In this document: positions 13,190 through 24,423 of the stretch, piece after piece
Layout of the letters: each line of letters starts with the position of its first letter
Position numbering within the stretch: position 1 is the stretch's first letter
Assembly (NCBI RefSeq): GCF_024223415.1
Contig: NZ_CP100500.1
Length of the DNA: 64,000 bases
Direction: 5' to 3' (one strand)
From: Escherichia coli
GTDB lineage: Bacteria > Pseudomonadota > Gammaproteobacteria > Enterobacterales > Enterobacteriaceae
The notes under the pieces: generated by a model
What the model was told of the DNA's origin: nothing
Databases searched by the model: none
Seen by the model: the letters and a program-made list of their open reading frames with translations, nothing else
Made by a program: the position numbers and the translations under genes

Positions 13190-13645
13190 TTATTCAACAC
13201 CTGAATCCCCCGCAGCTTCTCTCCCCTTTATAAAACGCCCCTTCCGGAATCCAGACCGCTGCAGTGCACGACGAAGATGACCGTATACCGTCTTGTCATT
13301 CTGCCCCGTCTCTTCTGTAATCTCCGCAATACTTAAACCTCTGTAATACCGGTTCAGTACCGCTCTGCGCTCTTCCAGCGTCAACACACCTCCGGCCGCT
13401 CTCAGATTCAGCATCGACTTATTCAGAATACAGCAGGCCTCTCCGGTAAAAAGAATACGAACAATATCTGTATACTCATCATCACAGAATACAAAATAAT
13501 ATCTGAATGACCTGCCTGACTGCACCCTTCTTCTGTCTGATATGGCATCTTCTATATATCTGATTCGACTGCTTACGGTTCCAAATATCTCTCGCAGGGC
13601 TTTTTCAAAATAAATATCTCTCGTCGCCAGGATTATATCCAGCAT
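13190..13645 (-). CDS. Small protein with sigma-70 region-4 / LuxR-type HTH (putative transcriptional regulator)
   Basis: 151 aa; C-terminal LTLEERRAVLNRYYRGLSIAEITEETGQNDKTVYGHLRRALQRS resembles ECF sigma region 4. Confidence 0.5.
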   Translation of the reverse strand: MLDIILATRDIYFEKALREIFGTVSSRIRYIEDAISDRRRVQSGRSFRYYFVFCDDEYTDIVRILFTGEACCILNKSMLNLRAAGGVLTLEERRAVLNRYYRGLSIAEITEETGQNDKTVYGHLRRALQRSGFRKGRFIKGREAAGDSGVE

Positions 13646-13705
13646 CTCTGTACCTCATTATATCCCGGGGGACTCCCCCGGGACAGATATCTAAATCCTG
13701 ACCTG

Positions 13706-14833
13706 TCAGAACTCAAAATTCACACCAGCATTCCACGATGCGGATGACCCACCTGCAGCAACTGCAACTTTTCCTGCCACATTCTCTGTGAAACGGTAGC
13801 CCACGCCCACCGCAATGGCCTGCTCATCACGGTAACCACCAACGGCTGCTGTCGCGTTAAATTTTCCAACACTGTATGGCTGGAAAAGACCGGCCAGTGC
13901 CGCGCTCTGGGCTGCACTCTCCCTTAACTCCTTCCGGTTCTCTTTAATCTGCTCCTGCATATTATTCATTCTCTCTGTCGCCATCTTCTGCCAGGCTTCC
14001 GTCAAATCCAGACGATGACTGTTATTCCTTATCGCTGCTGTATTTGAGGCTATTGCTGCATCCGTCTGCGCCCTGTTCTTCACAAGCACATCGCTGAGAT
14101 GTTCTGCCTGGCTTTTCACCTCGTTACGGACAGTACGCACACTGCTGTCTGTATATGTACGCGTCTCGTCCAGAACATCCGACTTCACCGCATCCGTGTA
14201 TTCCTGCGCAGAAGCCCTGGCAGCTGTAATATTACCGTTAAGTCTGTTTTCTGCCGATTCCACTCGACTCTTAGCATCAGCAACAGCATCACGGTAGACA
14301 GCTCCTATCTCACCGCGCAGGGCATCCCCCGACTCCCGTACAGCATCTGCAATGGCGTTGTCCATCTGTCCTTTTGTGGCCGCATCACTATCCTTAACAC
14401 CATCTGAAACATTTATAATCCGGCGGGTTTCCGGTGCACCATCAACTGAAAATCCATATCCTGAAGGACCGGCCCCTACAGAAAGTACATTGCTTTCTCC
14501 ATTCACCTGAGAGCCATACCCCAGAGCGACACTGTTGTCTGCATTAAAAACAGCTGTATTATTTCCCACAGCCATGGATTTATCCGCATCCCAAATTATT
14601 GCATCGGAACCAACAGCAAAGTTTTTTCCAGTAACACTACCATCACTGTTAAAATTTCCATTTCTGTCAACCACAGTTGCACTTTCAAGTGAATGAGTGC
14701 CATTATCAATCCAGATAATACCCGTCGATGACTCAGTAAGTGTTTTATGAGCCAAAGCCTGAGATGAGAGCAGCAGGGCCACACTCACTGCCAGCGCGCT
14801 TTTCTTTAAAAAAGCATCACGTCTTTTAAGCAT
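13706..14833 (-). CDS. Trimeric autotransporter adhesin with YadA-like C-terminal anchor (Eib-like immunoglobulin-binding protein family candidate)
   Basis: ATG at 14833 gives 375 aa with signal peptide MLKRRDAFLKKSALAVSVALLLSSQALA, coiled-coil stalk, and C-terminal anchor ending ..WNAGVNFEF. Confidence 0.7.
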   Translation of the reverse strand: MLKRRDAFLKKSALAVSVALLLSSQALAHKTLTESSTGIIWIDNGTHSLESATVVDRNGNFNSDGSVTGKNFAVGSDAIIWDADKSMAVGNNTAVFNADNSVALGYGSQVNGESNVLSVGAGPSGYGFSVDGAPETRRIINVSDGVKDSDAATKGQMDNAIADAVRESGDALRGEIGAVYRDAVADAKSRVESAENRLNGNITAARASAQEYTDAVKSDVLDETRTYTDSSVRTVRNEVKSQAEHLSDVLVKNRAQTDAAIASNTAAIRNNSHRLDLTEAWQKMATERMNNMQEQIKENRKELRESAAQSAALAGLFQPYSVGKFNATAAVGGYRDEQAIAVGVGYRFTENVAGKVAVAAGGSSASWNAGVNFEF

Positions 14834-15237
14834 TCTGTTATTCTCCTGTATTATTACTTCACCAGCCAGAACGGTAGTGCGGAGCAAAAATACAGTGATA
14901 AGAATCCTCTTTTATTAATTTAATAATATCAGGAATATTATTGTGTATAATATGCGCCCTCAATTTAAGCAGCAGAAAAGCAATGACGCGAAAATCATTA
15001 AAATACATAAAGATAAAACATCATAACTATAATTATAATAAGCGCGCTTATTTTAGCATCTGAACATTTAAAGTACTGCTATCACAAAACAATAAAAATC
15101 CTGGGTAATATCTCTGATGATTGAATGAGAAATTCACGATGTCTGGTGAGAATTCTGTTCAAAACGAGGAATGCAGACGTACACGTGGCACGCACCACGT
15201 GATCCGTAGAAAAGCCTCTTGTTACGAATTTCGTAAA

Positions 15238-15268
15238 CCGCACGTCTGTCTGGTCGTGCGGATTTTTT
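15238..15268 (+). terminator. Intrinsic-terminator-like hairpin on plus strand in Eib / tail-fibre intergenic region
   Basis: CCGCACG..CGTGCGG stem then ATTTTTTAT. Confidence 0.4.
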
Positions 15269-15454
15269 ATCCGTCAACTTCACATGAAACCCGCCAGAGC
15301 ACTGTTTCCGGATTCAGACATCAGGCATATTATCATCCACAATATCGTGAACAAGATCACCTTTTTGCAATTCCTTTATTGATCGAAAGCAGTTAATCAC
15401 TGAAATTAATTACCGGAGTGAAAGCATTACTGCATAATAAATATAGATCCTTGC

Positions 15455-15488
15455 CCCCCTCTGACAGAATTTTCAGAGGGGTTTTTTT
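15455..15488 (+). terminator. Strong intrinsic-terminator-like hairpin (plus strand) convergent on tail-fibre operon end
   Basis: CCCCTCTGA..TCAGAGGGG stem followed by T8. Confidence 0.5.
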
Positions 15489-15496
15489 TATCAGTT

Positions 15497-16072
15497 TCAC
15501 CATCCAACCCTGTACGCCAGAATGGTTTCACTGTCACTCAGTTCTGCTATTGCCTTTTTCATCTCCCTTTGCCTTATATGTATTTCAAGGCCTTTCCTGA
15601 ACATCGCTTTACCAGCAGCATCACTCAGGGATATCAGTTCATCTGCCGTCATCGGTACATCATTATTCTCTGCGTCCGTCCAGAAAAATCCTTCCGGCAA
15701 CACTCCGCCTCTGGCCGCTGATGCCGACATTCCAAGACGTGTCATGGCTTCCTTTCCATAATCCCATTTCCGTCCTCTGTGCTCAAAAACATACCCTGAC
15801 GCCTCCATCGCATCACGCCAGGCATTTATCTCCGCGTTTTTCATCCTGCGTGCTTCTTCCACAGCCATATCATCATTTGCCCGGTACTCACCTACCGGCC
15901 CTGCATCACCTCTTATGCAGGCTTCAAATATTTCACGACCGTAAGACTCAGGATCATCCGCACTTGCTGTAAATACACATTCTGTTTCCGCGTCTGAAAA
16001 CTTCACTATACAGTTTATGGTCGTATGACCCCTGTCAGCCCACACTGGTGACGTGATTTTATCGACCTTCAT
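15497..16072 (-). CDS. Hypothetical protein in tail-fibre assembly (tfa) position
   Basis: 191 aa ORF immediately downstream of side tail fibre gene; assignment by position only. Confidence 0.4.
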   Translation of the reverse strand: MKVDKITSPVWADRGHTTINCIVKFSDAETECVFTASADDPESYGREIFEACIRGDAGPVGEYRANDDMAVEEARRMKNAEINAWRDAMEASGYVFEHRGRKWDYGKEAMTRLGMSASAARGGVLPEGFFWTDAENNDVPMTADELISLSDAAGKAMFRKGLEIHIRQREMKKAIAELSDSETILAYRVGW

Positions 16073-16086
16073 TCATTTCTCCCCTG

Positions 16087-17892
16087 TCACCGTATTCTCT
16101 GAAACAGGCCCCAAATCGTCCCAATGATATTATTCACTGTCATGTTAGTTGTGCATAACATCCATGTACCAAGCATAGGATTGCCAAATAAAAAGCGGAT
16201 ATCTGTAAGTTTATCCGATGACGACGACACAATAACGGCCTGTCTGATACGATACCCGGGTATTTCACGGGTATTTGTTACCTCATGATTTCGTTCTATG
16301 ATCCCCAGAACATAAGACCCCACGGAATAAACACTTCCGACGCTCGCTGGCTGCCCCGGCTGTCCCTGTGGTCCTGCCGGGCCGCGTTCACCTGTATACC
16401 CTCTTGGCCCCTGAGGACCTGCCGGGCCGCGTTCACCTGTATCCCCCTTTAGTCCCTGTGGACCTGCCGGACCGCGTTCACCTGTATCGCCCTTTGGTCC
16501 CTGTGGACCACGCTCCCCCTGGGCTCCCAGCTCTTTCCATTCAGACCAGGGGCCATTACCGGTAAAATTACCAGTAACAGTTCTTACGAACTTTCGTGGT
16601 GGGTTCCAGGTTGTATATTCATGCTGGCAATATCCCCATGCACCAACTCTTACCTGAAGATAACCCGCTCTCTGAATCGGATAATTATTTTCTCGTGTAG
16701 CCCCACTGTCTGATGGCTGATAATAATCACCCTGATCGGTCACTCGTCCCAGTCGGTTCAGATCACCATTCAGCAGTTGTCCACGGGCTGACTCTCCTCT
16801 TGGTCCCTGAGGACCTGCCGGACCGCGTGCTCCTGTTTCACCTTTTGCTCCCTGTGGACCTGTCGGACCGCGTTCACCTGTTTCACCTTTTGGTCCCTGT
16901 GGTCCTGCCGGGCCGCGTTCACCTGTTTCACCCTTTGCTCCCTGTGGACCTTCCGGGCCACGTTCACCTGTATCCCCCTTTGGTCCCTGAGGACCTGCCG
17001 GGCCACGTTCACCTGTATCGCCCTTTGATCCCTGTGGACCTGCCGGGCCGCGTTCACCTGTATCCCCCTTTGGTCCCTGTGGACCTCCCGGATCTCCTTT
17101 ATCCCCCTTAGGGCCTTTTTCTCCTCGCTCACCCTTTTCTCCCTTCAGACCCTGAGGGCCTTCCGGACCACGTGCACCTGTTTCGCCCTTTGCTCCCTGT
17201 GGACCTGCCGGGCCGCGTTCACCTGTTTCGCCCTTTGCTCCCTGTGGACCTGCCGGGCCGCGTGCACCTGTTTCACCCTTTGGTCCCTGTGGACCTGCCG
17301 GGCCGCGTTCACCTGTATCGCCCTTTAGTCCCTGTGGACCTGCCGGACCGCGTTCACCTGTTTCACCTTTTGGTCCCTGTGGTCCTGCCGGGCCACGTGC
17401 TCCTGTTTCACCTTTTGGCCCCTGTGGCCCGGTAATGCCTCTTTCACCACGAGCGCCGGTATCCCCTTTCTCTCCTCGTGGTCCCCGGGCAGATGCTGCT
17501 CGTTTCCGGGCTTCCTCCGCCTCAGATGCCGCGGACTCTGCTCTGTGCAGTATGGACTGCACCACAGCCTCCAGCTCTGACAACGCCTTCGGATAATAAG
17601 GAGCATCTTCCAGCTCCATCAGAAATTTATTCAGTGTTCCCGGTGAAGAATCCTCCCTGACCACGATATCTCCCACATACGAAGGACGGTAACCTTCTGT
17701 ATTGAGTGTCACCCTGTATATTCCTGGCTCCACATCCATACTGTAACTCCCCGTCTCTTCCGGCATGCCATAAGCCACTGTCGTGGCGATGACTGTCTCG
17801 CTGGTTCTCTTCGCTTTCAGCTCAATAATGCATCCCGGTACCGGTTTTCCGGTTCCGTCCCTCAGCACGCCTGAAATTTTTACAGCCGCCAT
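16087..17892 (-). CDS. Side tail fibre protein (lambda Stf-like N-terminus) with collagen-like Gly-X-Y repeats
   Basis: 601 aa; N-terminus [18 protein letters not shown].. resembles lambda Stf; long [19 protein letters not shown] collagen triple-helix repeats. Confidence 0.85.
16320..17510. repeat. Tandem collagen-like coding repeats (27/45-bp periodic units) within the tail fibre gene
   Basis: Repeated GGTCCCTGTGGACCTGCCGGRCCGCGTTCACCTGT units on plus strand. Confidence 0.85.
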
Positions 17893-17964
17893 ACTCGCTC
17901 CATAAAAAATAATCCCGCAAAATTGCGGGCGTCGTCATTCATTTACAATCGGGTGTTTTTATGA

Positions 17965-18210
17965 TTACTTCACGCACGAAACTTTCGTAAACATATCTTC
18001 ACTCACCCACTGACCATAAAATCTCGGAGCTGATACTTTATACACAGTGCCGCTTTTCGTTTCTATTTTCCCTGTAAGATCTACCGTATAAGCTCGCTGT
18101 AAAACCCCGGGACTCAGCACACCGGTGCACCGGACTCTCTCCGTAACGGAACGGTACCCCGCGCAACCTGATACAAGAAACAGCAAAAAAGTGCAGACGA
18201 TTATTTTCAT
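17965..18210 (-). CDS. Small lipoprotein (signal peptide with LVSGC lipobox), possible Cor-like superinfection-exclusion protein
   Basis: 81 aa; MKIIVCTFLLFLVSGC lipoprotein signal; located between J-distal genes and side tail fibre. Confidence 0.55.
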   Translation of the reverse strand: MKIIVCTFLLFLVSGCAGYRSVTERVRCTGVLSPGVLQRAYTVDLTGKIETKSGTVYKVSAPRFYGQWVSEDMFTKVSCVK

Positions 18211-18231
18211 TACATGCCCTCAACATAACTA

Positions 18232-18894
18232 TCAGTACGCATCATAAATTTCTGCATTTATGTAATAACAGAGGTTATTAACAACACCTGAATTATCATT
18301 GGGCGCCGCTACGTTATCTTCAGCAAAAGTTGACTGACGCCATAACTGTGAGTTTCTGGCATTAAAACTGGCGGTATACCAGTAATAACTCTCCCCTTCC
18401 TGAACTGTCGTCCACTGGGTACACCCCGGCATTACGGCCACATCATGTCCCACACTGATCGGTACATCCTTTTCCCATATTCGCGTCATTTTTACTTCCA
18501 GTGGCAGCATTTCCGTGTTCCAGACCACCCTGCCATGACTGTCGCACAACTGTATTCCCCATTGCGGCCATACATTCACCATGTTGGCAAAAACATAAAC
18601 AACATATGTGCTGTCCTGTTCCATGCCCGGCTCCTGCCCTGTACCAGCGCTGAAAATGTCATACTGCCAGGTACCGTTAAGCTGAACCATTTCACCATGG
18701 AAGGACTGATTACCGCTTATCTGTTTAATAAAAATCACGCAACGATAATTCGTCGGCACCCCAGTGTCGATAAACTGCATCACCGCATCACGCGCACTCA
18801 GTGTGAAATGAAAACGGCGCACAAGGTTCAGTGGCGGCGCAACAGGTGATATCCATTCTCTCCCCCGCTCATCAGTTAATTTAAGTGCAAACAT
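18232..18894 (-). CDS. Hypothetical protein, translationally coupled downstream of J
   Basis: 220 aa ORF; start overlaps upstream ORF stop. Confidence 0.55.
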   Translation of the reverse strand: MFALKLTDERGREWISPVAPPLNLVRRFHFTLSARDAVMQFIDTGVPTNYRCVIFIKQISGNQSFHGEMVQLNGTWQYDIFSAGTGQEPGMEQDSTYVVYVFANMVNVWPQWGIQLCDSHGRVVWNTEMLPLEVKMTRIWEKDVPISVGHDVAVMPGCTQWTTVQEGESYYWYTASFNARNSQLWRQSTFAEDNVAAPNDNSGVVNNLCYYINAEIYDAY

Positions 18895-19154
18895 CAGATC
18901 CCCCTTATCATGACCAGCACGGGTCTTAACCAGCTTGTGTTGGCATAGTGCACTGTCCAGCCGGATACACTGGCACTGGTATGACTTCCCTGACCGTTAA
19001 TCAGAATGGCCGGTGAACAGACTTCCAGACGCCAGCCCTGCAAAGGAGTATAAGAACGCTGCCCCGTCCCTTCAGTGATCACATCCAGCACCCCTGTTGG
19101 GTTTATTTCATGTGTCACAAGGCGCCCTTTGCGCCATACCCGGACTCCGAACAT
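18894..19154 (-). CDS. Hypothetical protein immediately downstream of J
   Basis: 86 aa ORF; start overlaps J stop. Confidence 0.45.
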   Translation of the reverse strand: MFGVRVWRKGRLVTHEINPTGVLDVITEGTGQRSYTPLQGWRLEVCSPAILINGQGSHTSASVSGWTVHYANTSWLRPVLVMIRGI

Positions 19155-22100
19155 TACAGTCTCCCCAGTCGTACTCTTAACACATTGTTATCGTCATATA
19201 CGTCGATTCGCTCGCCATTGAAAAACAGGCGGCCTGCGCCGGGCCTTCCTGAGTTAATTTCAAGGCTGCCGTTTCTTGATAAACGCCACCCCGGACTACC
19301 GGAATGAAAATTATCTGACCGGATATCTCCCGTCACTCTGGCAAAATCCACGGTCAGTTTTTTCATGAAAACATCATTCATGAACAGCTGATCACCCTGA
19401 GCCACAAACAAAGGTGTTGTATTGCCATTTTCCGGGTTAATCATCGCAATACGATCTGCCTGCATCAGGATCTGACTCTGAATTCCGTCAGACGTATTTT
19501 CGATTCCGGCACCAATACCTGCAATATAGAGACGTCCATCCCGTGTCTGCTGCAGCTTCACAGCCCACATGCTGTTCAGGTTCCGGCGCGTGTCCTCCTG
19601 AACTTTCTGTATCTGCTCAATGCTGGCATTCCAGGATCCCAGTTTTTTATCCGTGCTCTGTGTGATCTGACTTCCCTTATCATCAACATACTGTCTGATC
19701 TGCGCTATCTGTCGGCTGTTCTCCTCCGTGCTCCTGCTTACTGTCTGCCGGATTTCGCTTCCCATCCTGTCAACTTTTCTGTCAACTTCCGCAATGGCCA
19801 TTGACTGTTCAGCGCTCTTTTTCGCCACAACAGTACTTATTTGCGCACTTTTATCATCAACATACTGCCTGACCTGCGCTATCTGTCGGCTGTTCTCCTC
19901 CGTGCTCCTGCTCACTGTCTGCCGGATTTCACTGCTCACGCTGTCAACTTTCCTGTCGACTTTCGCAATGGCCAGCGACTGTTCACCGCTCTTTTTCGCC
20001 ACCAGTTCCGTTATGCTGTTTTCAGACGCCGTGATTTTTTTCGTCACCTCTGCGATATCACGCTCCGCACGCTGCCTCACATCTTTCTCCAGCTGCGTCA
20101 TTTCGCGGTTAATCGCATTCTCCAGTTGCTCAACTTCAGTGCGCCGTGCAGAGGCATCAATGCGTTCATTGATCTCCCGTCCCAGATGCGTTTTATTTAT
20201 CGCCCCCCTGAAAAAATTAAGGTAACCGGCAGGATCATTACTCGCCCGACCGACTGCCTCCACGAATGCCGATTTACCGACAGTGTTAACACTGCGGATA
20301 TAAAAGTAATAATCATGGCCAGGTTTAATATTCTGGCCGGAGACAAGCCACTGACTTCCGGTACCAAGATAACGGGCTGTGGTTTCAACCTGCCTGATAT
20401 CGGTAATCCGCGTTTCCGAGAACCAGAACTCAAACTGTACCGTCGGATCGTAAACCGCAAGATGCGGCGTGGCGGTTATCTGAAAATAGCCCGGCGTCAG
20501 CTCAATCCGCGACGGCGCTGCCGGTGCGGCAATCCGGAACGATACCGACGCCGGGTCTCCCTGCTGCCCCCGGGCATTTACTGCCCGGACTGTCAGCCTG
20601 TAGTTCCCCGGCGCCAGCTGCCTGAAGCGGTATGTGGTTTCCGTCGTCCGGGCCGTGCTGACCAGCCGCTCACTGCCATCATCCGCGGCCACGGTCAGGC
20701 GAAGCAGGAAGCTCACGCCCTTCACCACCTTCGGCGTGTCCCAGCGCGCCAGCACCTGATATTCCCCGCTGTCTGCGGTGACTTCTGCGGTCAGGTGCTG
20801 CACCGCTGGCGGCGTGACACCATTCACCGTTCCGCTCTGGTCGCCGTCAAAGTGCGCCCCGTTATCCACGATGGCCTCTTTTTCCGGTACATGCTGCACG
20901 GCAGTGATGGCATACGTGCCGTCGTCGTTCTCACGGATACTCACGCAGCGGAACAGGCGCTGGCGCAGCGTCGGCAGCTTCAGCCCCCACACGCTGTACT
21001 CGGCAACGCCGTCAGGAACCCGGCTCACTTTTACCTTCACGCCGTCGGTGACGGACTGAACCTCCACGCTGACCGGATTGCCACTTCCGTCAACCAGACT
21101 TATCAGCGTGGTACCGGAGGATGGCAGCGTGATTTCACGGTCGAGCGTCAGCGTCCGGGTCTGGCTGTTCACCGCCAGCACACGACCACCGGTGCTGATA
21201 CCGGCATAGTCATCATCACAGATTTCAATGACATCGCCCGGTACATGGCGAAGCCCTTCAGCACCCACGCTGAAATCCACGGTCTGCGTCTCCAGCAGTT
21301 CTGTTTTAATCAGCCACAGCCCGGCGCGGTGTGCCTGCCCCCGGCTGGTACAGCCAAAGGCATCCATCTTCGTGACGTTACGACCGTAACGGGCAATGGC
21401 CTGCGTGTCCTCCACAAGCTCTGTCGCCGTCTCCTGGCCGTTATCCGGGTCACTCCAGTTCACCTCAACGGCATTATGGCGGTCCTTCAGGGCGCTGAAG
21501 CTGTAGCGGAACGGCGCGCCATCATCCGGCATCACCACATTACTGCGGTTATAGGTCCACACCTTATCCGACGGTCGGTCCTGCACGAACGTCAGCGTCT
21601 GCCCGTTCCATACCGGCATACAGCGCATCGCCGAGCAGAAATCACTGAGCACATCCCACGCCTTACGCTGCCTGGTCAGCCAGGCATTACAGGTGATGCG
21701 CGGCTCCGTGCCACCAGAGCCGTCCGGCACCGACTGGTCGCAGTACTGGCCGATGACATACAGCGCCCATTTGTCCACATCCGCTGCGCCAACACGTTTC
21801 CCCATGCCGTAGCGCGGGTGGGTCAGCATATCCCACAGACACCAGGCCGGGTTATCGCTGTATGCCGGTTTAAACGTTCCGTCCCAGATACCGCTGTATT
21901 GCCGCGTCTGCGGGTTATAGTTCGACGGCACCTGCAGAATGCGCCCGCGAAGATGATAATTACGGCTCACCTGCTGGCTGCCGAACTGCTCCGAATCCAC
22001 CTGCACACCGACCAGTGCCGTGTTCGGGTAGCACTGTTTCACATCGATGATTTCGGTGTATGACGACCAGAGCGTTTTGTTCTGCAGCTGGTCTGTGGTG

Positions 22101-22663
22101 CTGTCCGGCGTCATCCTGCGCATCCGGATACTGAACGGGCGCGGCGGCAGGTTACCCACCACCACCGGGGCCAGATACTGCGAGGTGGTTTTGCCCTTAA
22201 TGGTGATGTCTTTTTCCGTTAACCAGCGACCGTTACGCTGTATCTGAACCAGCAGGCGGACTTCCGACGGATTCCGGTCCCCCTTTGAGGTGGTTTCCAC
22301 CAGTGCCTGCACACCGAAGGTCAGGCGCAGACGGTCGATGTTTGCCGACGTGATGGTCCGGGTAATCGGCGTGTCGTACTTCACTTCCGTACCCAGCACC
22401 GTCTCGGAGCCGGAGGATTCAAATCCCTCCGGCGGCGTCTGCTCCTGCTCACCGGCCCGGAATACCACCGTGACGCCGGATATATTGGTATTCCCCTCAC
22501 TGTCCAGCACCGGCGTACCGTTCAGCAGCACGCTTTTTAATCCATCCACCGGTCCTTGTATCGGCCCTTCGCTGATGACATCGATCACACTCAGCAACTG
22601 CGTGGACTTCAGGTTGTCCTTCGCTTCGCGCGGGGTATGCCCCTTACTGCTGCCTTTACCCAT
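19154..22663 (-). CDS. Host specificity / central tail fibre protein J
   Basis: 1169 aa; lambda gpJ-like N-terminal and fibronectin-like regions; internal duplicated coiled-coil segment. Confidence 0.9.
19690..19995. repeat. About 150-bp tandem duplication inside J (encodes repeated ..AKKSxEQSxAIAxVDRKVD..[28 protein letters not shown].. segment)
   Basis: Two near-identical adjacent copies visible in DNA and protein. Confidence 0.8.
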
Positions 22664-22671
22664 TCCTCACA

Positions 22672-22704
22672 CTCCATAAACAACAAAGCCGCCCAAAAGG
22701 CGGC
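22672..22704 (-). terminator. Intrinsic terminator after the I-J intergenic lipoprotein gene, ending at the J ribosome-binding site
   Basis: GCCGCC-CAAAA-GGCGGC hairpin followed on minus strand by UUUGUUGUUUAU. Confidence 0.55.
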
Positions 22705-22729
22705 TCATGAGTTACGGCAGGATTAACTA

Positions 22730-23068
22730 TTATTTACATGCATTAACACTATCAGCAAAAATTTTTGGCGTTAATGCTGGTACGCGTTCATAAAGAGTAA
22801 AACTACTGCCATTTCCTGCTTTTTTGATATCAAGCACAACATCATACCCACCCATAGCCTGTGGAACTAAAAGGCTTACCCCATTCTCAATAGGAATGGA
22901 TGTTATAGGTGTTCCATTACCAGCCCATTGTCTGGATATGCAGCCTGACAATTCATCAATATTTTTTAATGAATTACCTTCCATTACAGGCTTGCCGGAT
23001 TTTACGTAATCCAAAGATTTACATCCTGTTAAGGCAATAATCGTGCAGAATAAAATCGTTTTGTTCAT
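22730..23068 (-). CDS. Lipoprotein (moron) inserted between tail genes I and J
   Basis: ATG at 23068 gives 112 aa starting MNKTILFCTIIALTGC (lipobox); AT-rich relative to flanking tail genes. Confidence 0.6.
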   Translation of the reverse strand: MNKTILFCTIIALTGCKSLDYVKSGKPVMEGNSLKNIDELSGCISRQWAGNGTPITSIPIENGVSLLVPQAMGGYDVVLDIKKAGNGSSFTLYERVPALTPKIFADSVNACK

Positions 23069-23140
23069 ATAGCTAACCAACAGAATAATTATCAGTGTTC
23101 GATATAAATATTAAATCAGTTAGAACATGAGTAAATAATA

Positions 23141-23782
23141 TTACCGCCCAATTACCACAACCTGACCACCATCCCCTTCATCTGCCGTGCTAATCTCCTG
23201 AGATGCCACACGTGACCCCACGCGCATTTCACCGTACAGAACAGGCAGGACATTGCCCTGGGCAACCATGTTATCCAATGAGGAAAAATAGGTATTTTGC
23301 TTACCGTTATCAGTGGCTGACACTTTAGGCGTTTTGGCTTTCGGTGCCAGCATCTGCGCAACACCGCCTAAAACCATACCTGCCCCAAGAGAGAACATGA
23401 GATTACTTGCAACAATACTAAGCCCCGGCATCCAGATTGCCGTAGCAATTAGCGCCGCACCCAGCACTGCCTGAAAAATACCGCCACTTTTGGCACCCGC
23501 CAGACGCGGTACGATGTGGATCACGGCACCATTTGCCAGCGGCTCATTAAGACGGGCAGATAATTCGTTTTCGCCTGCATCACGCCCGGCAATGCGCACC
23601 TGATACCAGCCGTCATTCAGTTTCTGACGAAACGCCGGGAGCTGTGTGGCCAGTGCCCGGATGGCTTCAGCCCCCGTTTTCACACGAAGGTCGATGCGGC
23701 GGCCAAATCGTTGCAAATCCCCGTAAAGGCAGATGCGTGCCATGCCCGGTGACGCCTGAGGGAGTGTGTGCGTCGCTGCCAT
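23141..23782 (-). CDS. Tail assembly protein I
   Basis: 213 aa; lambda gpI-like; overlaps K. Confidence 0.85.
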   Translation of the reverse strand: MAATHTLPQASPGMARICLYGDLQRFGRRIDLRVKTGAEAIRALATQLPAFRQKLNDGWYQVRIAGRDAGENELSARLNEPLANGAVIHIVPRLAGAKSGGIFQAVLGAALIATAIWMPGLSIVASNLMFSLGAGMVLGGVAQMLAPKAKTPKVSATDNGKQNTYFSSLDNMVAQGNVLPVLYGEMRVGSRVASQEISTADEGDGGQVVVIGR

Positions 23783-24423
23783 TTGTCGGTGTACCTCTCT
23801 CGTTTGCTAAGTTGTTCAGGAATATGGTGCAGCAGCCCGCCGTCGCCGCAGTAAATGGCGGCATGATTCGGCACCGATGAACCAAAACAGCACAGCAGCA
23901 CGTCGCCGGGCTGCGCCTCTGTCAGTGCGACACGGTAAAAACCAGTCGCCTCCATATTGTCAAGATAGAGATTCTGACCGTTACGCCACCAGTCATCCCC
24001 GCGATGAAAATCCGGCATCTCAATTCCCGCCAGATGGTAAGCATCCCGGAACAGCGTGTAACAGTCCGTCACCCCGTGCTCAAAGCACCGCCCGGTGAGA
24101 TGCGGCACACAGCGGAACTTGTGAATCGCCCCCCGGCAGACCAGCCACCACGGCAAATCACTCTGCACCTGCAGCCGCCGGTCGGCCTCACTCAGCCAGG
24201 GCAGACCACCGGGGTGACTGTGGACCAGTGCCACAATCTCACCCTGCATTTCTGCCTGCAGCCAGTCCTCCGGCGACATCCGGAAATACGCCTCCGGCTC
24301 ACCGGAGATATTCACGCAGGGGAAATATCTTTCCCCCTCCGGCGCTCTCACCACGAAGCCGCACGACTCCGCTGGCGCACATCGCCGGGCGTGCGCCAGA
24401 ATCGCTGATTCTGTCTCTGTCAT
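23680..24423 (-). CDS. Tail assembly protein K (NlpC/P60 + JAB/MPN)
   Basis: ATG at 24423 gives MTETESAILAHARRC..; HSHP JAMM motif; C-terminal tail RRTHSLRRHRAW as in lambda K. Confidence 0.88.
   Translation of the reverse strand: MTETESAILAHARRCAPAESCGFVVRAPEGERYFPCVNISGEPEAYFRMSPEDWLQAEMQGEIVALVHSHPGGLPWLSEADRRLQVQSDLPWWLVCRGAIHKFRCVPHLTGRCFEHGVTDCYTLFRDAYHLAGIEMPDFHRGDDWWRNGQNLYLDNMEATGFYRVALTEAQPGDVLLCCFGSSVPNHAAIYCGDGGLLHHIPEQLSKRERYTDKWQRRTHSLRRHRAWHASAFTGICNDLAAASTFV

Follow-up and report, generated by a model that had tools for sequence, protein, structure and literature searches.

The window, i.e. the whole stretch of 64,000 nucleotides of Escherichia coli DNA analysed here, contains on its minus strand a gene predicted to encode a tip attachment protein J of 1169 aa (19154-22663), which combines a lambda-like backbone with an N15/T1-like distal end. 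It is directly followed by three small genes on the same strand: orf86 (18894-19154; 86 aa), encoding a homologue of N15 gp22 and T1 gp32 (PHROG 557); orf220 (18232-18894; 220 aa), encoding a homologue of N15 gp23, T1 gp31 and phi24B gp54 (PHROG 425); and a gene of 81 codons (17965-18210) for a Cor-like lipoprotein with a signal peptide and a lipobox, which matches PHROG 27799 and PHROG 1119. The coordinates given in the initial annotation were confirmed. The initial annotation had also described the 86-aa and 220-aa open reading frames as translationally coupled, in agreement with the one-base overlaps between the J stop codon and the orf86 start (TAATG) and between the orf86 stop codon and the orf220 start (TGATG). 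A Shine-Dalgarno motif of the GGAG/GGGGG type precedes each start codon. The ATG of the lipoprotein gene is located 21 nt past the orf220 stop codon and is preceded by GAGGG.

An intrinsic-terminator-like hairpin, CCCGCAATTTTGCGGG followed by the T-run ATTATTTTTT (17904-17929, minus strand), was identified by a terminator scan and by inspection of the sequence between the lipoprotein gene and the gene of the side tail fibre (16087-17892, minus strand). The latter encodes a protein of 601 aa with the Pfam domains phage_tail_N and Collagen and long collagen-like repeats, contains 45-bp tandem repeats and forms the downstream border of the cassette. A gene for a DUF4376 protein of 191 aa (15497-16072, minus strand; Pfam DUF4376, PHROG 1141) follows in the position of a tail-fibre assembly gene. 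A promoter scan around the cassette returned promoter-like sites only at the level of shuffled sequence, none of them convincing for the lipoprotein gene, and the lipoprotein may be expressed chiefly as part of the late tail operon. PADLOC gave no match, and neither did Rfam within positions 13000-24000.

Judged by their conservation the three open reading frames are true coding genes and not chance ORFs, since they are found intact and in the same order in an unrelated phage background (locus L007), where the encoded proteins share 63% (orf86, across all 86 aa), 52% (orf220) and 48% (lipoprotein) amino acid identity with those of the window. The trio is nevertheless rare. Among 5426 complete E. 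coli genomes, the 1.3-kb region was detected in nine with an identity of 99.6-99.9%, while no record of the phage collection matched it at the DNA level and a tblastn search with orf86 found nothing. When 1.84 billion representative proteins were scanned exhaustively with HMMER, orf220 obtained 41 matches at E <= 0.001, one of them with 50% identity and all others with 32% or less. In a word-indexed protein search orf220 matched no more than two clusters and the lipoprotein three, so that the families were reached only with the exhaustive search and with profile searches.

In all nine E. coli carriers the annotation under the match consists of two hypothetical proteins and J only. In the RefSeq/PGAP annotation of the relative that was inspected in detail, orf86 is represented as a protein of 74 aa starting at an internal GTG, 12 codons short, and the lipoprotein gene is not annotated. 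The homologue in L007 aligns with the 86-aa form over its full length and from residue 1, which favours the coupled ATG over the internal GTG as the start codon of orf86. As the lipoprotein is missing from the RefSeq annotation of this E. coli relative and the other eight genomes likewise show just two hypothetical proteins, exclusion genes of the Cor-like type are probably under-counted.

The backbone of J was recognised by the Pfam models FNIII-A_GpJ, Phage-tail_3, Ig_J, Ig_J_second and PF09327, and a Phage_Tail_Tip domain covers residues 1015-1140. Over 710 aa J is 35% identical to N15 gp21, to which its C-terminal ~210 aa can be aligned as well. The first ~2470 nt of the gene are present in 4628 of the 5426 E. 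coli genomes with 90-95% identity; the full-length gene was detected in 23 of them, with the trio in nine. Around position 20200 the GC content drops from approximately 0.60 to 0.50. A natural exchange is apparent from the comparison with the lambda-type J of E. coli CUVET21-1780: both proteins are 89% identical and can be aligned up to residue 1104, from where J of CUVET21-1780 continues with its own C-terminal domain of 197 aa, followed by lom. At this point of divergence the window has an N15-type end of 65 aa (residues 1105-1169; 19154-19351 including the stop codon, minus strand) and subsequently orf86, orf220 and the lipoprotein gene. The lipoprotein gene thus lies where lambda has lom, as the initial annotation had proposed. 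In the lambda-type arrangement the receptor-binding domain is part of J and is followed by an Ail/Lom β-barrel protein, whereas the window encodes separate proteins and a lipoprotein at the same place of an otherwise 89%-identical J backbone.

The C-terminus of J in the window is a short conserved tail (...VYDxNxVLRVxLGRL), without a built-in receptor-binding domain. A common fibre-end motif, ...VYDxNGxLRVxIGRL, links it to the corresponding proteins of N15, T1, the Erwinia phage Midgardsormr38 and to the needle protein of Stx phages, regardless of the tail type. The overlap between the stop codon of the fibre gene and the start codon of the small gene is likewise found in the window, L007, L015, L012 and N15. 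A second natural exchange is represented by L007, the locus of a short-tailed Stx-like phage that encodes the orf220 relative P0002. Here the trio adjoins a needle protein of 421 aa, with 86% identity to its counterpart in Stx phages that use BamA. These BamA-using Stx phages encode a different pair of proteins after the needle, with only ~22% identity, and then a Lom-like protein. Given the two exchanges and the common fibre-end motif, sequence comparison indicates that the trio and the last 65 residues of J form a modular unit which fits onto a conserved fibre end and occupies the place of the built-in receptor-binding domain of lambda. The last 65 residues themselves are presumed to form the docking end for the cap proteins.

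Neither orf86 nor orf220 obtained a match above threshold in Pfam or NCBIfam; weak matches to RHS and Inhibitor_I78 were below the cut-off and were rejected. Profile comparisons were more informative. Orf220 matches PHROG 425 with an E-value of 3.3e-27, its residues 1-218 corresponding to profile positions 3-224, and an end-to-end alignment with 37 members of the family shows Y100, F102, A153, I212 and Y217 to be invariant. Pairwise identities are low (17.7% to N15 gp23 and 18.7% to T1 gp31 over 209 aligned columns, ~22% to the gp54-like protein of Stx phages), and in a distance tree orf220 forms a deep branch of its own together with P0002 and P0006. For orf86 the match to PHROG 557 is weak yet consistent (E 2.8e-4, residues 2-73). 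The protein is ~20% identical to its N15-type counterparts, and the hhalign comparison of the orf86 group with the alignment of N15-type gp22 gave a probability of 93.5% and an E-value of 2.2e-7 over 74 columns. The orf86-like and orf220-like genes were found as a pair in every locus examined. Both proteins appear to be soluble, as no signal peptide and no transmembrane segment were predicted for orf86 (Kyte-Doolittle 19-residue maximum 0.61) or orf220 (0.88).

In searches against the sequences of the PDB neither orf86, orf220 and the lipoprotein, used singly, nor the family profile of orf220 led to a real match, and for no member of the orf86 and orf220 families has a structure been solved or contact with a receptor been demonstrated. 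The structure model of orf220, however, shares its fold with the receptor-binding protein of phage Oekolampad (PDB 9RPT chain C). The identity in the structural alignment is 10% and the Oekolampad protein was not found with the orf220 family profile, so that the two are linked by fold only. By this fold the gp23 family is now tied to a solved LptD-binding protein, although a recent survey had listed them as unrelated families. Taking the fold and the homologues together, orf220 is probably a receptor-binding protein that caps the central fibre. Its family member in phi24B, gp54, belongs to the virion proteome and extra density was described at the tip of the needle, whereas gp55, the counterpart of orf86, was not detected in virions (bioRxiv 10.64898/2026.04.10.717836). 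In a modelling study, these two proteins were put forward as the tip components that had been lacking for phages using FhuA or BamA (PMC12309495). Furthermore, the variable locus just past gpJ was found to track the terminal receptor, and often to contain accessory or exclusion proteins, in the BASEL study (PMC8594841), and a screen of 255 phages in 2026 came to the same result, again often with exclusion proteins (bioRxiv 10.64898/2026.04.02.716166). For orf86, its position and homology would be compatible with an adaptor between the three-fold tip of J and the receptor-binding cap, which we regard as the weakest step of the model. The suggestion in the initial annotation that the coupled pair acts as tail-tip accessory or host-range factors is therefore supported by the homology to N15 gp22 and gp23 and by the receptor-binding fold of orf220.

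The N-terminus of the 81-aa protein, MKIIVCTFLLFLVSGC-A, represents a hydrophobic signal peptide (Kyte-Doolittle 11-residue maximum 3.29). It leads to a V-S-G-C lipobox with alanine in the +2 position, MKIIVCTFLLFLVSG-C-A, which upholds the previous description as a lipoprotein. In E. coli, lipoproteins with a residue other than aspartate after the lipidated cysteine are sorted to the outer membrane, and the +2 alanine of the 81-aa protein is in accordance with this rule. The protein matches the Cor family PHROG 1119 with an E-value of 8e-7 and, with a better E-value of 1e-8, PHROG 27799, an unnamed family of unknown function. The NCBIfam model for Cor (NF047972) covers residues 2-80 of 81 with 28.4 bits (E 1.2e-6) and thus falls short of the curated equivalog cut-off of 31 bits. 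Comparison with Cor proteins gave identities of 28-36%, and among the best 120 of 194 profile-search matches (E <= 0.001) the identity to Cor proteins ranges from 25 to 38%. An alignment of 42 Cor-family sequences (the one of the window and 41 others) revealed M1, C16, C28, Y57, P62, W68, F74 and C79 as invariant. The lipoprotein retains every one of these residues, i.e. the acylated cysteine, two more cysteines and the aromatic core, and its length agrees with the ~77-81 aa of the family. It was thus rightly called Cor-like, even if it scores below the NF047972 cut-off. No match was obtained in Pfam (E <= 0.1) and the Ail/Lom domain is absent. A fold search with the model of the lipoprotein did not single out Llp, and the match to the fold of T5 Llp was unspecific. 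An identity as o-spanin or as Bor-type lipoprotein was considered and rejected because of the full-length homology to Cor and the location in the tail region. By homology, the protein is best described as a full-length Cor homologue and a Cor-type outer-membrane lipoprotein.

The Cor proteins of T1, N15 and phi80 exclude FhuA-dependent phages (PMC13164509), and pairs of a receptor-binding protein and an exclusion lipoprotein are not limited to this receptor, as one has been solved for LptD (bioRxiv 10.1101/2025.07.07.663478). In two analogous exclusion lipoproteins with solved complexes, one of them from the latter study, the extracellular loops of the receptor are altered and the binding of the receptor-binding protein is prevented. 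The lipoprotein of the window and the adjacent cap have diverged to a similar extent between the two phage backgrounds (48% vs 52% identity), as expected for a matched pair. The lipoprotein is therefore probably a superinfection-exclusion factor that blocks the receptor used by the cassette. However, the link between cap and lipoprotein is not obligatory, since a third sub-lineage of the same clade (P0006-type) lacks the lipoprotein and has a Hok/Gef protein or a small transmembrane/coiled-coil protein in its slot. In the next-nearest branches this slot is occupied by a TonB_C mini-protein, and in L022 and L005 by Lom.

The profile searches and the comparison with N15 cor and its neighbours, which had been recommended along with the initial annotation, revealed homology for all three genes in an identical order. 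N15 gp22, gp23 and Cor are strong members of PHROGs 557, 425 and 1119 (121, 240 and 112 bits, respectively), and the trio of the window matches these families in the order of N15. The arrangement of J, a protein of ~100 aa, a protein of ~225 aa, Cor and a fibre is common to N15, Midgardsormr38, Fostie and T1, with cor on the opposite strand in T1. N15 gp22-gp23-Cor, T1 gp32-gp31-Cor (gp30) and the loci of Fostie and Midgardsormr38 thus agree with the window in families, place, J-end motif and start coupling. N15 additionally has an annotated stem-loop between cor and gene 25, in the same position as the hairpin of the window; the spacer before the lipoprotein gene differs, comprising 21 nt in the window and 111 nt in N15. 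Phage phi80 presumably carries a copy of the gp22-gp23-Cor cassette, too. The annotation of T1 also mentions gp22/gp23-like proteins in HK022. From these sequence comparisons the trio of the window is a divergent copy of the recognised cassette of J end, gp22, gp23 and Cor and not a new kind of system.

Other systems resemble it in part. The Traversvirus phi24B, which uses BamA, has a gp56 needle with gp55 and gp54 from the same pair of families and a fibre end of ...VRIGRL, but it has a short-tailed virion and a Lom/Ail-type protein after the pair instead of a Cor-like lipoprotein. Including phi24B, the coupled ORFs do occur in related phages (N15, T1, Midgardsormr38, Fostie), which answers a question raised earlier about their presence beyond the window. 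The receptor-binding protein and exclusion lipoprotein of Oekolampad (Bas18) and the Rtp44/Rtp45 pair (LptD) show no detectable sequence similarity to the proteins of the window. The Oekolampad lipoprotein is not a Cor homologue, and the published descriptions of its locus, on which this comparison is based, contain no small adaptor gene. In T5 the pair of pb5 and Llp (FhuA) comprises an unrelated receptor-binding protein in a different genome organisation.

We consider it fairly probable that the trio and the last 65 residues of J act in host recognition as a single exchangeable cassette, which is of the N15/T1 type and includes a cognate exclusion lipoprotein. J terminates in a short conserved tail in place of a receptor-binding domain of its own. 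According to the model, the soluble products of orf86 and orf220, whose coupling signals and missing export signals are apparent from the sequence, would be translated right after J, and both may be attached to the tip of the trimeric central fibre. Orf86 would link the three-fold tip of J to the cap, the least certain part of the model, and the orf220 cap, as suggested by its fold and homologues, would bind an outer-membrane β-barrel protein and trigger irreversible adsorption. The lipoprotein, equipped with the targeting signals described above, would be transported to the outer membrane and, by analogy with Cor, T5 Llp and Rtp45, may bind the periplasmic side of the same receptor and make it unusable. 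Such a block would shield the lysogen or the infected cell from related phages and could also spare the loss of progeny on cell debris.

Three other interpretations of the small genes have to be weighed against this model. The annotations of PHROGs 557 and 425 describe the products of orf86 and orf220 as proteins of the host-cell envelope which act together with Cor in superinfection exclusion and which would not be part of the virion, and an exclusion-related role was also assumed from their constant association with cor (KanT1 paper, PMC13164509). This seems highly improbable, as both proteins lack signal peptides and transmembrane segments and are translationally coupled to J, a coupling that is kept in distant relatives. 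Moreover, phi24B-type phages and P0006-type loci carry the pair but no Cor, gp54 of phi24B is present in virions (bioRxiv 10.64898/2026.04.10.717836), the fold of orf220 is that of a receptor-binding protein of known structure, and the trio with the J end stands in for the C-terminal domain of J and lom. Small genes right after fibre genes often encode chaperones, such as Tfa of lambda or gp38 and gp57 of T4. Orf86 and orf220 might accordingly be assembly chaperones of the distal J fibre that are absent from the virion, with J binding the receptor. Such a role would be in line with Lewis et al. (PMC10373560), who took J as the receptor-binding protein of FhuA phages, and with the failure to detect phi24B gp55 in virions, but the same virion proteome does contain gp54 (bioRxiv 10.64898/2026.04.10.717836). 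In addition, the short J-end motif is common to FhuA and BamA phages and therefore cannot set the specificity alone, receptor specificity follows the downstream locus (PMC8594841; bioRxiv 10.64898/2026.04.02.716166), and the fold of orf220 matches that of a protein in direct contact with its receptor. Chaperones are thus an unlikely explanation for the pair as a whole, and a role of this kind is less easily dismissed for orf86 than for orf220.

The third interpretation concerns the lipoprotein only, which could be a lysogenic-conversion moron involved in serum resistance, adhesion or envelope modification instead of a blocker of the phage's own receptor. The lom slot indeed carries unrelated cargo in relatives (Lom, Hok/Gef, TonB_C mini-proteins) and the protein scores under the equivalog cut-off for Cor. 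The full-length homology to Cor with every invariant residue retained and the co-divergence with the adjacent cap in two phage backgrounds nevertheless argue against a moron, as does the documented pairing of receptor-binding protein and exclusion lipoprotein at this locus for FhuA (PMC13164509) and LptD (bioRxiv 10.1101/2025.07.07.663478), and we regard this possibility as improbable, too. A host-recognition cassette with a cognate exclusion lipoprotein hence remains the preferred interpretation.

The known cassettes of the N15/T1 type are tied to FhuA. The copy in the window is a deep outlier of this cassette, and consequently the assignment to FhuA, which the initial annotation had brought in with the phi80/N15-type Cor, cannot simply be carried over. 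The gp23 family includes T1 and N15 as FhuA-linked members as well as members from BamA-using phages of the phi24B type, and the branch of orf220 is about equally distant from the FhuA-linked and the BamA-linked ones. With the identities given above orf220 also stays below the >30% that the screen of 2026 required within a receptor class (bioRxiv 10.64898/2026.04.02.716166), and therefore does not fall into the FhuA-specific family of receptor-binding proteins. The module is too distant from both branches for its sequence to point to one receptor, and candidates are FhuA, another TonB-dependent transporter or something else. The retained Cor homologue hints at FhuA or a similarly built TonB-dependent transporter. 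A bolder reading, to which we give somewhat less credence than to its opposite, is that an outer-membrane protein other than FhuA and BamA, for instance another TonB-dependent transporter, is recognised by the cassette and by its relatives with 50% identity in Stx-like podophages. If so, the lipoprotein would be the first member of the Cor family retargeted to that receptor, and the Cor and gp23 families would co-evolve as matched lock-and-block pairs across receptors and tail types.

The choice of receptor is generally hard to predict from sequence, and in small siphophages the locus past gpJ is the predictor with the best support, derived so far mostly from virulent phages and four receptors. 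At the locus described here the same three-gene logic is found in a lambda-like E. coli prophage and, within the same deep branch, on the conserved needle of Stx phages. The two natural exchanges, i.e. the C-terminal domain of J with lom vs the cassette and the BamA-type pair vs the cassette, represent naturally matched controls for identifying the receptor.

The Cor-like lipoprotein gene (6991-7236) carries no PGAP annotation in L001 (RefSeq NZ_CP172185.1), the relative that was inspected in detail, and the start assigned by PGAP to orf86 (6047-6307) in the same locus is an internal GTG resulting in a product of 74 aa. Since the annotation under the cassette match comprises only two hypothetical proteins and J in all E. 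coli genomes with this DNA (9/9), and since the lipoprotein is unannotated in L001, standard annotation probably overlooks this subtype of exclusion lipoprotein.

Where the orf220 homologue belongs to one of the next-nearest branches (31-32% identity), the cor/lipoprotein slot is filled by a protein of 85-98 aa that carries a C-terminal TonB domain (PF03544, E 7e-9) and is encoded at 5696-5953 (-) in locus L011, at 5760-6056 (+) in L012 and at 1556-1852 (+) in L013. Such a phage TonB_C mini-protein adjoining the receptor-binding module could disable TonB-dependent receptors in another way.

Furthermore, Hok/Gef toxin genes were detected directly after the cassette in the loci L019 (4804-5139) and L007 (9217-9357), the latter harbouring the P0002 trio. 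In loci of the P0002 type the lipoprotein gene comes first and the Hok/Gef gene lies immediately downstream; in those of the P0006 type the Hok/Gef gene occupies the lipoprotein slot itself.

The window also contains a lipoprotein-like ORF upstream of J (22730-23080, minus strand), located between J and the tail assembly gene (213 aa, 23141-23782). This ORF is listed with a TTG start and a length of 116 aa, and translation from an internal methionine yields a lipobox-containing signal peptide, MNKTILFCTIIALTGC. The ORF hits PHROG 914 (function unknown) with an E value of 6.5e-33 and lies in a stretch of low GC content (0.38-0.43). Because only a 60-nt gap is present at the corresponding position in the related prophages L001 and L022, the ORF has the appearance of a moron insertion.

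The coiled-coil part of J contains a tandem duplication of 174 bp (58 aa; 19677-20002, 1.9 copies, 90% match) as well as extra coil sequence which is not present in the lambda-type J of L022, together adding roughly 120-150 residues to the central fibre. In the side tail fibre, the collagen-like Gly-X-Y shaft is encoded by 45-bp tandem repeats at 16362-16509 (3.3 copies) and 16800-17427 (14.3 copies). The fibre gene is shorter in the GF60 relative (1329 nt versus 1806 nt), and the shaft length therefore probably varies with the repeat number.

Just past the tail-fibre assembly gene, the region 13190-14887 (minus strand) encodes a trimeric-autotransporter-like adhesin of 393 aa (YadA anchor, E 2e-16; stalk and head matches weak) and an adjoining 151-aa protein with a sigma-70 region-4/HTH domain; the two resemble cargo located at the end of the prophage.

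The gene for the gp54-like tip protein (5992-6615) of L005, the Stx2a phage LC616032 (Sepvirinae), is interrupted by an in-frame stop near codon 189 of 204, which may reflect a true truncation, translational read-through or a sequence feature common to these phages. The same tblastn match (25.8% identity) occurs in about thirty LC6160xx records of the study that produced LC616032, the stop itself having been read in LC616032.
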